DNA from: Dehalococcoidia bacterium
GTDB taxonomy: Bacteria; Chloroflexota; Dehalococcoidia; UBA2979
DNA: 64,000 nucleotides
NCBI GenBank assembly: GCA_965219085.1
Contig: OZ244720.1
Location: 1,184,001-1,248,000 of the forward strand
Direction of reading: 5' to 3'
In this document: one piece after another, positions 17,188 to 22,516 of the stretch
How the letters are laid out: every line of letters starts with the position of its first letter
Position numbering within the stretch: the first letter of the stretch is position 1
Program-made: the position numbers and the translations under genes
Notes under the pieces: model-generated
What the model saw: only the letters and a program-made list of their open reading frames with translations
Database searches by the model: none
What the model was told of the DNA's origin: nothing

Positions 17188-18027
17188 ATGGCCACCGCGA
17201 CGATCAACGGCGTCGAGATCTACTACGAGGAGCACGGCTCGGGCCCGCCGATCCTGTTCCACCACGGCTTCACCGGGTCGCACGACGGCTTCGTGCCGAT
17301 CGCCGAGCGCCTGCAGGATCGCTTCCGCTGCATCCTCATGGACTCTCGCGGCGCCGGCGACAGCGAGCGTCCCGACGGCGGCTACACGATCGAGCAGTAC
17401 TCGCAAGACATCGTCGGTCTGCTCGACCACCTCGGGCTCGACCAGGTCGCGTACGTCGGCCACAGCATGGGCGGCGGCATCGGCTTCCAGCTCGGCCTCG
17501 AGCACGCCGAGCGCTTCACGCACATCATGCTCGTCACGCCCATCTCCGCCGACGGCTACGCGACCGACCCGGTGCAGGCGGCGCGAGGCCGCCAGCTGCG
17601 CATGGACGGGGCGCGCGACGTGCTGATCCGCGAACGCAAGACCGGGATCGCGCGCGAGGAGCTCATCGACGAAGCCGAGATCGCACGGGACGTCGACCGC
17701 TCGCTCTCGGCCTCCGACGGCCACTACGACGACGGCATGGTGGCGATGGCCACCCTGCGCGTCGGTGACCGCCTGGACGAGATGACGACGCCGACGCTGA
17801 TGATCACCTCCGCCGCCGACGCCCTGCTCGCGGCCAACCTCGCCGACTTCCAGCGCCTGCCGAACGCCTCGCTGCACGTCTTCAACCGCGTCGCGCACGG
17901 CGTGCAGGACGAGGTCCCGGACGAGTTCGCCGAGTTGGTCGCGGACTTCGTGACGCACGGCGTGGTTAACGCGCAGACGCTGGCTGACCGCCTCGTCGCC
18001 GTGCAGGCGGAGGCCGCAGCGGTCTAG
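17188..18027 (+). CDS. Alpha/beta hydrolase
   Basis: HGFTG, DSRGAGDS, GHSMGG nucleophile elbow, late His. Confidence 0.95.
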   Translation: MATATINGVEIYYEEHGSGPPILFHHGFTGSHDGFVPIAERLQDRFRCILMDSRGAGDSERPDGGYTIEQYSQDIVGLLDHLGLDQVAYVGHSMGGGIGFQLGLEHAERFTHIMLVTPISADGYATDPVQAARGRQLRMDGARDVLIRERKTGIAREELIDEAEIARDVDRSLSASDGHYDDGMVAMATLRVGDRLDEMTTPTLMITSAADALLAANLADFQRLPNASLHVFNRVAHGVQDEVPDEFAELVADFVTHGVVNAQTLADRLVAVQAEAAAV

Positions 18028-18170
18028 CAGGCTGCTGAAGAAGCGCCCTTCCGGGGTCTCGGAGTGGCGAGAGGCGGCTTCAAGCCGCCTCCGGGTTCGT
18101 GATCGTGGCCTCCTGACCGGCCCCCGGGGGCCTCTGAGGGCTCCCTGGCGGGGCGGAGGGCGCACTGCGC

Positions 18171-18646
18171 CTACGCCGCGGCGGTCTCGAGCGTGGCCAT
18201 GCGCACGAGGTTGTAGGCGGCGGCGGTGAGCTCCAGCCAACAGCGGTTGCGCTCGCGGCCCACGAAGCGCAGCTTGCGCCCGCCGCCCACGGTCTTCATC
18301 CAGCCGAAGACCTGCTCCACGATCTTGCGCCGCTTCTGACTCTGCCTGTAGCCGCGATGCCGCGTGGTGCGCCCATCCACGGCGCTGCGGCGGCCGCGGT
18401 CGTGCTGCGCCACGTGCGGCGTCACGCCGCGAGCGCGCAGCGCCGCCACGAAGCCGCGCGTGTCGTAGCCGCGGTCGGCGCCCAGCGTCCCGCAGCCGCT
18501 CACGCTGCGCTCCAGCATCGTGACCGCCGCCTCGCGCTCGGCGTACCCGTTCGCCTCGGTCAACTCCACGTCCAGCACCAGACCGTGACGGTTCTCGGTG
18601 AGCAGATGGCCCATGTAGCTGAGCTTCGCCGTCTGCCCCGACCCCT
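18171..18646 (-). pseudogene. IS5 transposase, C-terminal fragment
   Basis: GSGQTAKLSYMGHLLTENRHGLV...GADRGYD...RKIVEQVFGWMK...AAYNLVRM. Confidence 0.9.
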
Positions 18647-18654
18647 AATGGGGC

Positions 18655-18890
18655 CCGACCAGCGGCCAGAGGTTCTCTGGCAGACTGGTTCTGGACCCTG
18701 CCAGCCGGTGAGCTCTCAGCTGATCCCTGCGGCTTCTGGACCGCTTCACGAAGACCGAGCCCCTGCTGGTATTCCGGGTTGTTCTGCAGCACTCATGGGG
18801 TGTCGTGCCATCGAGCACTGATCCATTAGGCCGTCGCAGGAACCAACCCGCCGGGTCGCACCGAGCAGCGCGAAGCGGGAGAGGAACTGA
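18655..18890 (+). ncRNA. Bridge RNA of IS110 element (ends approximate)
   Basis: Target loop CTGATCCCT (18720-28)/CACGAAG (18747-53); donor loop GGGGTGTC (18797-804)/CCATTAG (18823-29); each pair is separated by a short stem-loop. Confidence 0.85.
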
Positions 18891-18896
18891 AACACG

Positions 18897-20120
18897 ATGG
18901 CCTTGTACCTGGGCGATGACTGGTCCGAAGACCACCACGACGTCCATCTCATGAACGACGCGGGCGAGCGGCTCGCCGCCCGGCGTCTGCCCGAAGGGGT
19001 GGAGGGCATCACTGCCCTGCACGGACTGGTCGCCGGGTACGCCTCAGGGCCGGGTGAGGTGATCGTCGGCATCGAGACGGACCGCGGCCCCTGGGTCGCG
19101 GCACTGCTCGCGGCCGGCTACCACGTCTACGCCATCAACCCGCGCTCGGCGTCGCGTTACCGCGACCGCCACCACGTCGGCGGCGCCAAGTCCGACGCCG
19201 GCGACGCGAAGCTGCTCGCCGACCTCGTCCGCACCGACCGGCACAACCACCGGGAGGTCGCCGGCGACAGCGACGAAGCCGCCGCGGTGCGCATCCTCGC
19301 CCGCGCCCACCAGCAGTTGATCTGGGACCGCGTCCGCCAGACCAACCGGCTGCGCAACGCGCTCAGGGAGTACTTTCCGGGTGCGCTGGAGGCCTTCCCC
19401 GACCTCGCGCACGACGACGCGGTGGGCGTGCTGGCGACAGCGCCTGGCCCGCGCGAGGCGGCGCGGCTGAGCATCACCCAGATCCGCTCCGCGCTGCGCC
19501 GCGGCGGCCGCCGGCGCAACATCGAGCGGCGCGCCGCCGAGGTCCGCGACGCGCTGCGCTCACCGCAGCTCGAGGCTCCGCCCGCGGTGAGCAAGGCATT
19601 CGCCGCGAGCACCAGTGCGGCAATGAGGGTGATCGGCGAGATCAACCGTCAGATCAAGGAGCTCGAGGCCGAGCTCGCGAGCCATTTTGAGCAGCACCCG
19701 GACGCCGGTATCTACCGTTCCCTGCCCGGTCTCGGCGTGGTCCTCGGCGCCCGGGTGCTTGGCGAGTTCGGGGATGACCCCGAACGCTACGAGTCGGCGA
19801 AGTCCCGCAGGAACTACGCCGGCACGTCGCCGCTGACGGTAGCATCCGGCCGCAAGCACACCGTGAAAGCCCGCTTCGTCCGCAACCGGCGCCTCTACGA
19901 CGCAGTCGACCAGTGGGCGCTGTGCTCCCTGCAGGCCAGCCCCGGCTGCCGCGAGTTCTACGATCGGCGGCGCGCCGCGGGCGACCTCCACCACCAGGCG
20001 CTCCGCGCCCTCGGCAACCGTCTCGTCGGCTACCTACATGGCTGCCTGAAGCGCCGCTTGCCCTACGACGAGACGACCGCCTGGGGACACCGTTACACCC
20101 ACGAGGACCTCGCTGCTTGA
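18897..20120 (+). CDS. IS110-family DEDD recombinase/transposase
   Basis: GDDWS, GIET, KSDAGDA, SLPGLG, ASG, RALGNRLV; 407 aa intact. Confidence 0.95.
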   Translation: MALYLGDDWSEDHHDVHLMNDAGERLAARRLPEGVEGITALHGLVAGYASGPGEVIVGIETDRGPWVAALLAAGYHVYAINPRSASRYRDRHHVGGAKSDAGDAKLLADLVRTDRHNHREVAGDSDEAAAVRILARAHQQLIWDRVRQTNRLRNALREYFPGALEAFPDLAHDDAVGVLATAPGPREAARLSITQIRSALRRGGRRRNIERRAAEVRDALRSPQLEAPPAVSKAFAASTSAAMRVIGEINRQIKELEAELASHFEQHPDAGIYRSLPGLGVVLGARVLGEFGDDPERYESAKSRRNYAGTSPLTVASGRKHTVKARFVRNRRLYDAVDQWALCSLQASPGCREFYDRRRAAGDLHHQALRALGNRLVGYLHGCLKRRLPYDETTAWGHRYTHEDLAA

Positions 20121-20144
20121 CCCCTTAGCGTCCTGGGGGTGTCT

Positions 20145-20274
20145 TCGTGTACAGCCGCGCCTCCGGGTCCGTGCCGGAACTATGCGTATCGCGGCTGCGC
20201 CGCCGCCCGCGGAAGTCGACATCCGGGTTGCGTCCGCCCAGGGGTGGCTCCTGCTCGTCGCGCGGGCGGTAGCT
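20145..20274 (-). pseudogene. IS5 transposase, middle fragment
   Basis: Manual translation SYRPRDEQEPPLGGRNPDVDFRGRRRSRDTHSSGTDPEARLYTK. Confidence 0.9.
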
Positions 20275-20299
20275 TCTATGAGGGACGGTCTTTCTGCAA

Positions 20300-20610
20300 G
20301 GCCGACGTGGCGGCCTCCTCCTCGGGGCGTGGCGCTCCTCGACATCGGGGCCGATCCGCTCGTGATGTCCCCTGACGGAGCCTGTGCCGAGCTTCTATCC
20401 GCACTCTTTGATGGGCCACGTATCGGGCCCGGTGCATGAAGGCACATCCTGCTTCCAGGGGGCGCTGCCAACTCTTGAACGTCCTTGTTGGACCGCTACC
20501 GCCTCGCAGTCGCCCGTTGCCCGGCATCACGTGCAGTGGTTGGTTTGCTGGGCCTCCTCCCAGGTCCGTCTCAGTCTCGCTCTCCTGGTCGGTTGCTTCG
20601 GCGCCGCGCC
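20300..20610 (-). ncRNA. Seek/bridge RNA of IS1111-type element (3' non-coding region, ends approximate)
   Basis: Minus strand GGCGGTAGC (20503-20495) and TCAAGAG (20478-20472) match the target flanks; CCATC (20414-10) and ATAGAAG (20398-92) match the circle junction. Confidence 0.8.
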
Positions 20611-20613
20611 TTG

Positions 20614-21702
20614 CTACGCGGCCTCCTGCGCCGCGGCGTCGCGCAACGGCTCGTAGACCTCGCCGGTCTTCCACAGCGCGAGCAGCAGCACCGCCAGCCG
20701 CCTCGCGACGCCCACGACGGCGCGCTTCTTCGCGTTACCGGCCCCCGTAGCGGTGTAGCGCTCACCCCAGCGGCGCAGGTCGGTGTCGGGCCCGAAGGGG
20801 CCGAGGATGTAGTGCGCGGCCTGCACCAGCAGCCGCCGCAGGTGCGGATCGCCGCTCTTGCCGATGCCGAGTTGCGGCGTGCGCTCGCCCGAGTCGCGCT
20901 GCCTCGGCACGAGCCCGAGGTAGGCGCCGACCTCGCGGTTCTTCGGGAAGCGCCCAGGATCCTCGATCGTCAGCACGAACGTGAGCGCGGTGATCGGCCC
21001 GACGCCCGTGACCTGGCGCAGCGCCGCGGTCTCGGAGTGAGCCTCGCACAACGCCTCGATCTCGCGGCCGGCCGCCGCGATGCGCGCGGTCAGCTCGCCG
21101 ATCGCCTCCACCAGCGGCAGCAGCGCCGGGCGCAGCCCGTCGGGGATGTGGTCCGCCGTCTTGCGGTGGAACGCCTCGGCCGTGCACGACGGCAACGCGG
21201 CTCCGCAGGCCTTGACGGCCCCGCGCACGTGGTTGATGAGCAGCGTCCGCGAGCGCACCAGCGCGTCGCGGGCGCGCACCACGGCGAGGTCGTGCTGGCT
21301 CGCCTCGCTGCGGTGGCGGATCGGGGCGAGCAACTGGGGGTCGAAGCGCCCCAGCCGCGCCAGCCACTCGGCGTCGAGCCGGTCGGTCTTGCGCTGGCTG
21401 CGGGCGATCAGCGCGACCTGGCGCGGGTTGGCGACGACCACCTCGTGGCCGAGGTCCGCCATGAGGCGGCTCAGCCACGGCGAGCGCGGCCCCGCCTCGA
21501 TCACGACCCGCGATGGGGGGAGGCCGGTCAGCACCATGCCCAGCGCTGCCGTCGTGGTGCGGACGCGCCTCTCACGTACCACCTCCCCGCCGGCGCCGAG
21601 GGCGTGGACGTGGGTGTAGCGGTCGCCCACGTCGAGGCCGATGGTGACCCCTGACCCTTCCTTGCCCTCAATGCTCCACGTCGTTGCGGTATCCTGCTGC
21701 AC
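20614..21702 (-). CDS. IS110-family (IS1111-type) transposase
   Basis: GLDVG, VIEAG, KTDRLDA, VTGVGPITA, YLGLVPRQRDSG, AVVGVARRLA. Confidence 0.95.
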   Translation of the reverse strand: MQQDTATTWSIEGKEGSGVTIGLDVGDRYTHVHALGAGGEVVRERRVRTTTAALGMVLTGLPPSRVVIEAGPRSPWLSRLMADLGHEVVVANPRQVALIARSQRKTDRLDAEWLARLGRFDPQLLAPIRHRSEASQHDLAVVRARDALVRSRTLLINHVRGAVKACGAALPSCTAEAFHRKTADHIPDGLRPALLPLVEAIGELTARIAAAGREIEALCEAHSETAALRQVTGVGPITALTFVLTIEDPGRFPKNREVGAYLGLVPRQRDSGERTPQLGIGKSGDPHLRRLLVQAAHYILGPFGPDTDLRRWGERYTATGAGNAKKRAVVGVARRLAVLLLALWKTGEVYEPLRDAAAQEAA

Positions 21703-21814
21703 GGCCGGTCTCCTACCTCGTCAAAGCTCCGCAAAGAGCCGTTCTGGCCCATCGAGGCCGCTGTTTCGGGGGCGAGTATCCCCCTTGAGGAAGAGACCGG
21801 CCCTCATGCCATCT

Positions 21815-22285
21815 CTTGAGCGACGCCCACGCCTCGAGCAGCGTCCCGTCCACCGTGAAGTGCTCGGCCGAGAGCAGCCGGCGGCGCTTTGCCTCGGCCA
21901 CCACCTCGGCGAAGAAGGCGCGCGCGACATCGGCTGCGAGCAGGCGCTCGCGGTTCTTGGAGAAGCTCGAGGCGTCGAACGGCGCGTCTGAGATGTTGAG
22001 GTCCAAGAACCACTTGAAGAGCAGGTCGTAGCGCAGCCGCTCGCTGAACTGGCGCTCGCTGCGGATCGAGTAGAGCGCGATCAGCAGGCTCGCCTTGAGC
22101 AGGTGCTCGGGCGGGATCGAGGGCCGCCCGCTCGTTGCGTACATCGTGCCGAAGAGCGGCGAGAGCCGCTGCAGCGCTGCATCGACGATCGGCTTGATGC
22201 GTCGGATCGGGTGGTCGTCCGGGATGAAGGAGTCCGGCGTCACCGCCAGCAACATGTTGGTCTGACGCTCAGCGTCGCCTCGCAC
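21815..22285 (-). pseudogene. IS5 transposase, N-terminal fragment
   Basis: DHPIRRI, GRPSIPPEHLLKA, SIRSERQ, HFTVDGTLLEAWASLK. Confidence 0.9.
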
Positions 22286-22516
22286 GGGGCTGCCTCCCAG
22301 GCTACGCCCCCGCCGCCTTCGCTATCCTGCCAGATGGCCGCGCCTTTTTCAGCACCCTGCTAGGCTCCCCACCTGGGGCCGAACGCAAGAATCGGGGAGC
22401 CGCCGCGGCGGCTCCCCGGCGTCACCTCCGTGGCGCGGCCGAGGGCGATCCGGGTGGCGACGCAGCCCCACCCGAGCGCAAAGACGACTACCAGCCGTAA
22501 TCGGAGAGTGATTCTT

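Follow-up and report, generated by a model that had tools for sequence, protein, structure and literature searches.

The stretch of DNA analyzed here (the window) comprises 64,000 nucleotides from the genome of a Dehalococcoidia bacterium (Chloroflexota, UBA2979; assembly GCA_965219085.1, contig OZ244720.1, positions 1,184,001 to 1,248,000 of the forward strand), a single 3.31-Mb contig with 69.8% GC, and it carries at 18647-20144 on the plus strand an insertion sequence (IS) of the IS110 group that is 1498 bp long and has precise ends. The recombinase gene of this element (18897-20120, plus strand) is intact, encodes a 407-amino-acid protein of the DEDD/Ser type, and matches the Pfam families PF01548 (2.7e-37) and PF02371 (4.1e-11), the domain pair that defines IS110-family recombinases. 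The remaining features are also those of the IS110 group: a left noncoding end of 250 nt (18647-18896) faces a right end of 24 nt (20121-20144), and the element sits at a short core, CT, found at both junctions, without long terminal inverted repeats. The host of the insertion is itself a mobile element on the minus strand (18024-22364), whose transposase we class as IS1182/IS5-like because its protein pieces match the Pfam families DUF772 (N-terminal) and DDE_Tnp_1 (C-terminal); together with two IS110-family insertions it forms a 4341-bp composite, at whose borders the identity to other copies in the genome ends. On the left, the element adjoins the left target (LT), CCGACCCCT (18638-18646, plus strand), which includes the core CT at 18645-46; the first bases of the element, AATGG, follow from 18647, its right end, GGGGTGTCT, stops at 20144, and the right target (RT), TCGTG, occupies 20145-20149 on the same strand. 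Across the insertion point the minus-strand frame of the host reads ...GRNPDVDFRGRRRSRDTHSSGTDPEARLYT (...DPEARLYT) and then K-G-S-GQTAKLSYMGH. We regard 18647-20144 as very probably an ordinary IS110-group element with the bridge RNA that is expected in the left end of such elements.

An earlier, sequence-only reading of this stretch had described a complete bridge RNA in the left end, and its guides, small hairpins, mismatches, and codon positions all match the sequence at the positions given. On the plus strand, the parts follow one another as in the published bridge RNA, that is, a 5' hairpin, a target loop, and a donor loop. The 5' stem-loop (18658-18689) has an outer helix formed by ACCAG (18658-62) and CUGGU (18685-89). 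The target-binding stem-loop (18700-18770) consists of a base stem (18700-15 with 18757-70), an internal loop that holds two guides, and a distal hairpin (18729-18744) of GCGG (18729-32) and CCGC (18741-44). The left target guide (LTG), CTGATCCCT (18720-28; CUGAUCCCU as RNA), matches LT at 7 of 9 positions, and the right target guide (RTG), CACGAAG (18747-53), is CTTCGTG in reverse complement without a mismatch (7/7), a match that reaches 8 of 9 on the right target side when the guide is extended to the 9-mer at 18745-53. In the donor-binding stem-loop (18782-18841), a predicted base stem pairs UUCUGC (18782-87) with GCAGGA (18836-41), and a distal hairpin (18805-18818) of GTGC (18805-08) and GCAC (18815-18; GUGC/GCAC as RNA) separates the left donor guide (LDG), GGGGTGTC (18797-804; GGGGUGUC as RNA), from the right donor guide (RDG), CCATTAG (18823-29; CCAUUAG as RNA). 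The LDG is identical to the right-end bases 20136-43 and the RDG is the exact complement of CT plus AATGG across the junction, which amounts to 8/8 and 7/7 against the joined ends of the element. When the left end was shuffled 200,000 times by mononucleotides, such a donor pair (exact 8-mer plus exact 7-mer) arose in 2 shuffles and a target-loop pair, for which an RTG 7-mer had to match exactly and an LTG ending in CT had to lie upstream with 7/9 or more, in 105.

The assignment of a complete bridge RNA with these guides is backed by the way in which loops, flanks, and stems change together among relatives. In a scan that took one genome per species, 251 stretches were found to encode a relative, and the best 80 were kept; most come from Dehalococcoidia metagenome-assembled genomes, at 76-86% protein identity, and a few from Actinomycetota, at 66-69%. 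Leaving out one locus cut at a contig start (L071) and two whose left end was not recognizable (L036 and L050), 77 related loci together with 4 copies from the source genome gave 81 loci, which fall into 22 classes by guide and 18 distinct families by target. Both sides of the first internal loop vary in step with the flanks of these loci: outside the core, the LTG matches the left flank in 94 of 126 cases (shuffled mean, 44.3) and the RTG matches the right flank in 73 of 80 (shuffled mean, 30.0), and neither value was reached in any of 100,000 shuffles. Covariation between loop and flank in homologs, which the sequence-only reading had proposed as a check, is therefore present. Every left end among the 81 loci starts with CT-AATGGG (the hyphen marks the insertion point, as in the site sequences with a sequence on either side of it below) and the donor loop is almost invariant, but six related loci that carry GGGATGTC in the loop also carry GGGATGTCT at the right end, a covariation that amounts to one G-to-A change. 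The two target guides differ in how closely they follow their targets. Over 77 distinct insertions there are 138 mismatches in the LTG compared with 20 in the RTG, and those in the LTG are distributed over LT positions 1 to 7 as 25, 22, 37, 17, 27, 5, and 5; natural insertions of the relatives are thus often mismatched at LT positions 1-5 and rarely at positions 6-7. Many of the relatives (L014-L021, L031-L052, L063-L070, and others) sit, with many loci per genome, in a repeated C-rich motif, ...CCCCTCACCCCCGCCCT-CTCTCCC..., that looks like a dispersed repeat, and several LTGs of these relatives end in CA or CC rather than in the CT that would match the core.

For the structure of the RNA, 22 representative left ends were aligned and a consensus fold was computed with RNAalifold, which returned a long base stem, an internal loop with both target guides, and a distal hairpin of 4 bp. 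We tested 27 pairs, which belong to the 5' hairpin, to the base stem of the target loop, and to the distal hairpin of either loop, and found 98.3% of cells paired over the 22 sequences, compared with 25-49% in slid controls, with changes on both sides in 8 pairs; in 500 shuffles, four of five structure measures were never reached and the remaining one, further pair types, was reached in 6. Helix 1 of the 5' hairpin is paired in 96.2% (z = -2.66 for the single-sequence fold), the 14 pairs of the target base stem are paired in 98.4% and include 4 with both-side changes, and such changes are seen in 3 of the 4 pairs of the target distal hairpin GCGG/CCGC. Covariation thus supports the 5' hairpin and the target stem-loop of the bridge-RNA layout, and the compensatory stem changes point to a single strand that is folded. 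RNAalifold also paired parts of the two donor guides with each other and placed a long-range helix between columns 3-6 and 239-242; both were excluded, as they overlap the guide segments.

The source genome offers an internal control, in which the matching allele is always occupied, the near-miss allele is always empty, and one insertion lies outside the family. It contains six full, near-identical copies of the IS110 element with precise ends, which the search for copies reported at 100% identity and which are about 99.9% identical. Five of them, including the window copy (L002), lie at one point of IS1182-like copies, between CCGACCCCT and TCGTG, and the sixth (L005; insert G000:C1:166286-167782) lies at an unrelated site, GGGATCTCT-TCGTG; the LT 9-mer accordingly borders 5 of the 6 copies and the RT 5-mer all 6. 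What the two kinds of site have in common is GAT-C-CT and the full RT, and at the unrelated site RT is perfect and LT is mismatched at positions 1, 2, and 7, the last of these not of the wobble type. The insert at L005 breaks an open frame (L005 1344-3524, minus strand) that is in phase across the insert, with 175 + 51 codons, and for which a Pfam search returned no family. Thirteen host copies in the genome bear the site. The matching allele, CCGACCCCT-TCGTG, is occupied in 5 of 5 IS1182 copies and the other alleles in 0 of 8, namely, seven copies with CCGCTCCCT-TTGTG (G000:C1 876390, 895249, 1180754, 1973965, 2154747, 2485554, and 2965343) and one diverged host copy with CCGAACCCT-TCTTG. The allele of the seven empty copies differs from the occupied one in 3 of the 14 bases of the target, at relative positions -5, -4, and +2, with the effect of changing Ser to Ala, GGG to GGA, and ACG to ACA, the last two synonymously, and outgroup alleles carry the occupied-type bases at -5 and +2.

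The two LTG mismatches of the window copy, at 18639 and 18642 (LT positions 2 and 5), both set a guide U against a bottom-strand G (rU:dG), the bottom strand being the coding one for the host gene, and both fall on third codon positions, 18642 in GGG (Gly) and 18639 in TCG (Ser), as the sequence-only reading had noted. From this it had concluded that the guide either tolerates synonymous variation through U:A and U:G pairing or was tuned on a synonymous allele, and both halves hold up, given that U·G tolerance is published and that alleles with A exist; the tolerance is a reasonable inference and one already known. How the mismatches came about can be read in more than one way. The guide may have been set on a perfect IS1182 allele, CTGATCCCT-TCGTG (with GGA and TCA) of a previous host or lineage, with the present mismatches representing tolerated, unselected drift of target or guide, and we consider this a real possibility that nevertheless falls short of probable. 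Alleles with a single T are indeed found, the TCA allele (T at LT position 2) in L091 of another genus (CTGACCCCT-TCGTG) and the GGA allele (T at LT position 5) in the seven empty copies as well as in L092 of another genome (CGGATCCCT), and the off-family site at L005 has T at position 5 too, but the double-T allele is absent from the 13 copies of this genome and from the 7 site-spanning loci in the other 60 of the 61 family genomes searched, which is a small sample. Since the left end of the IS110 element has no match in G045, G010, and G036, three genomes whose empty alleles are informative, the empty sites there tell nothing about efficiency. Mismatches at third codon positions are also to be expected because the target is coding and its alleles differ mainly by synonymous transitions; the pattern is what synonymous polymorphism or drift in a coding target would produce. 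Alternatively, the U's of the guide could be an adaptation, in that a U opposite purine-ending synonymous positions lets one guide cover several alleles. The rU:dG character of both mismatches on the coding strand fits this idea, and so does the makeup of the 138 LTG mismatches (72 wobble-compatible, 12 other transitions, and 54 transversions), with a wobble-type share of 52% in cognate compared with 26% in noncognate pairings (reached in 0 of 2000 shuffles) and a T content of 23% in the LTGs compared with 9% in their targets. However, the excess stems mostly from one C-rich target family that does not look coding and is gone once this family is set aside: the remaining 32 insertions have 14 mismatches of the wobble type, 10 other transitions, and 37 transversions. 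With each combination of guide class, position, and target base taken once, the three counts over all 77 insertions are 25, 8, and 40. Moreover, the chance that both mismatches of the window copy would fall on the only two third-codon positions among the 7 noncore LT positions is 1 in 21, which is weak on its own, and the alleles of this genome with A at position 5 are all empty. We therefore hold an adaptive U to be unlikely. We are similarly doubtful about a wider scenario of IS-on-IS parasitism, in which such a degenerate guide would be met by IS1182 prey that escapes through three target-site changes. The only IS1182 lineage still intact and multiplying is the empty one with seven copies, and at a local divergence of ~5.6% some 0.8 differences would be expected in 14 bases where 3 are seen (Poisson P about 0.05), a pattern that would fit target-site escape.

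The explanation in which we have high confidence as a whole is that the left end encodes a bridge RNA whose programmed target is the 14-bp stretch in the transposase gene of the IS1182/IS5-like element. Besides the family bias of the wobble excess, several points weigh against it. The guide rule has exceptions among the relatives, with 1 of 7 LT positions matching in L053 and L054 and 2 of 9 in L035. In the source genome, a search for empty sites near the 14-mer implied by the guides found none with 0-1 mismatch and 11 with 2 mismatches, compared with 13 expected, and some unoccupied sites, e.g., GCGACCCCTTCGTG and GCGATCTCTTCGTG, come about as close to matching the guide as does the off-family site that is occupied, indicating that the match alone does not predict occupancy. 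Regarding the RNA itself, an Rfam search of the left end with E up to 1 matched no family; the minimum energy of the whole left end, whose folding the sequence-only reading had suggested, is no better than that of shuffles (z = -0.27), for which reason we relied on the consensus structure; the fold of the donor segment gives z = -0.23; and single-sequence folding closes the guides into internal pairs instead of open loops. The donor base stem is a prediction of such a single-sequence fold, and the distal hairpin of the donor loop, which is the same in all 22 sequences, carries no covariation information. The whole-left-end fold, and an RNA that is here a prediction from sequence, with its transcription, its binding to the protein, and a dependence of recombination on the loops proposed by analogy, would also be compatible with matches that arose by chance or with protein-binding repeats that act at the DNA level and need no guide RNA. 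We judge this extremely improbable in view of the shuffle tests and the covariation, which speak against chance, the compensatory stem changes, and the family mechanism, which has been demonstrated experimentally (Durrant et al. 2024, PMC11208160). A different objection concerns the copies: if the element spread because the composite itself transposed, or because IS1182 copies underwent homologous recombination or gene conversion with one another, its occupancy would say little about guide specificity. L001, L002, and L006 are indeed copies of a single 4.3-kb composite, 99.8-99.9% identical, with an identity that ends at the IS1182 ends, and because they share it they count as one insertion event, which lowers the number of cases in favor of programmed targeting. 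Gene conversion is possible at L003, whose backbone is of the empty type at -22 and +19 and of the occupied type at -5, -4, +2, and +12, so that the occupied-type bases form an island no more than ~40 bp wide about the insert, yet a conversion tract would need both of its ends within ~20 bp of the insert. L003 and L004, on the other hand, have distinct backbones (2-4% diverged) without the second inserted element, and their IS110 copies are ~99.9% identical to that of the window; near-identical copies in diverged hosts imply at least three insertions into the matching allele plus one elsewhere. Furthermore, the outgroup allele L090 in another genome has the occupied-type site and is empty, and the copy at the unrelated site cannot have come by homology. 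Spread by these routes in place of guided insertion thus seems improbable to us.

The sequence-only reading had further proposed that the junction of an excised circle would form a promoter, TTGACC-N19-TCTAAT. This arrangement is present in the window copy and its -35 part is well conserved, but the spacer is probably one nucleotide shorter. The candidate -35 box, TTGACC (20117-20122, plus strand), overlaps the stop codon of the recombinase gene and keeps a constant distance from the right end, with TTGAC at this fixed distance in 19 of the 20 junctions printed and TTGCC in the remaining one (L075), although this conservation may derive in part from coding constraint. The first half of the candidate -10 box, TCT-AAT, lies at 20142-20144, and the second half, at 18647-49, joins it only in the excised circle. 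The 19 related junctions have 18 nt between TTGAC and TCTAAT and the window copy has 19 nt, since its G run at 20135-20139 numbers five G's, as in L001; the other four copies of the genome have four. All contigs of two public DNA-type runs (X1 and X5) are also one G short at 20135, and from the four-G majority and these contigs we conclude that the spacer is probably 18 nt, while the five-G run may be a homopolymer error of the assembly.

Together with the anatomy of the left end, the distribution of the copies, and the covariation of loops and stems, the conserved -35 box would fit a course of events modeled on IS621 and ISPpu10. Excision would create a right end-left end junction that brings the -35 TTGAC of the right end together with the -10 TCT-AAT, and this promoter would transcribe an RNA of ~190 nt with the 5' hairpin, a loop for target binding, and another for donor binding. 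The LTG would then pair with the bottom strand to the left of the core CT and the RTG with the top strand to its right, the LDG and RDG would pair likewise with the joined ends of the element itself, and the DEDD/Ser recombinase would exchange strands at CT.

Four public sequencing runs were examined as contigs, two of the DNA type (X1 and X5) and two from RNA libraries (X21 and X22). A contig of X1 joins 18644 to 20143, which is the empty-site form. Excision was considered as its source and rejected, since the letters of X1 match the allele of L090, which is empty in another genome, pointing to a related IS1182 copy in the sample; in line with this, loose ends at 18646 in X1 and X5 continue straight into TCGTGTACAGCTG. 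No circle-type joint was listed in the contigs of the runs, but contigs drop rare forms, and this is therefore no evidence against circles. In X5, one contig aligns on either side of the target loop, with the intervening 70 bases (18716-18785; depth 8.4, side 20) unmatched, which fits a relative with another target loop in the same sample. The contigs of X21 and X22 cover only parts of the recombinase gene and none of the left end, show many differences, probably because they are from relatives, and have no bearing on expression.

The same IS1182 copy contains a second IS110-family element at 20275-21812, with an open reading frame on the minus strand (20614-21702) that matches PF01548 and PF02371. 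Its upstream end measures ~110 nt and its downstream end ~339 nt, an IS1111-type layout that would put a bridge RNA in the right end. In IS1182 copies without this element, window position 20274 is joined directly to 21813; five IS1182 copies carry it at one and the same point (L001, the window copy, L006, e1, and the diverged e8), and copies of it with 85-88% identity occur elsewhere in the genome. A relative of the second element (891783-893321) also lies just upstream in L007 (G000:C1:891933-896122), a nest of insertion sequences in which an 83%-identical relative of the recombinase gene without a left end of its own (893433-894622) directly borders on an empty IS1182 copy at that copy's end (894623 onward). 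Within the recombinase gene of the window element, in antisense (19721-19802, minus strand), lies the only Rfam match of the element above the gathering score, to the sRNA family Ms_AS-4 (63.9 bits, with a gathering score of 50); six of its structure positions are noncanonical, and it has the look of conserved IS110 coding sequence and not of a structured RNA.

The kind of system described here is already known, as its architecture, its junction promoter, and its wobble tolerance have all been described, and it opens no new question. Its value lies in being a clean natural case of bridge-RNA targeting, with a coding target, in a poorly studied GC-rich lineage, and in some 77 related insertions that follow the experimentally reported rules, that is, a loose distal LTG, strict core-adjacent positions, and a strict RTG. 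The mismatch pattern of these relatives could inform off-target models for bridge recombinases.

IS110-family elements that aim at other mobile elements are familiar from the IS1111 group. IS4321 and IS5075 sit in the inverted repeats of Tn21-type transposons, and the seekRNA work concerns such elements, in which the RNA lies in the right end and terminal repeats are the targets. The element of the window resembles them in being an IS110-family element directed at a specific sequence in another transposable element and differs from them in its left-end layout and its coding target. Among the systems compared, IS621 has the published layout that it matches, as far as can be told from the DNA alone. 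Durrant et al. (2024, PMC11208160) place the bridge RNA of IS621 in the left end, upstream of a recombinase with DEDD and Ser domains, and describe a 5' hairpin, after which come two stem-loops that each contain an internal loop. [quoted passage not shown] The window element shares the left-end RNA, the order of the loops, the core CT in both guides, the conserved donor loop, and a candidate -35 box in the right end, whereas its RTG of 7 nt (8/9 when extended) is longer than that of IS621, its target is located inside a transposase gene instead of a repetitive extragenic palindromic (REP) element, and its host genome has 70% GC. The match to ISPpu10 from Pseudomonas putida lies in the pairing rules. 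The preprint on this element (bioRxiv 10.64898/2026.03.19.712850) reports a U·G wobble between LTG and LT, said to mirror a G·T wobble in IS621, a tolerance of substitutions at distal but not at core-adjacent LTG positions, and a strict RTG in which pairing is needed at nearly every position. The looseness of the distal LTG and the strictness of the RTG among the relatives of the window element agree with ISPpu10, as does the layout of the candidate hybrid junction promoter. In the same account, ISPpu10 targets a REP-type intergenic stem-loop, with the structure of the target as a second check, whereas the element described here is directed at a coding site in IS1182.

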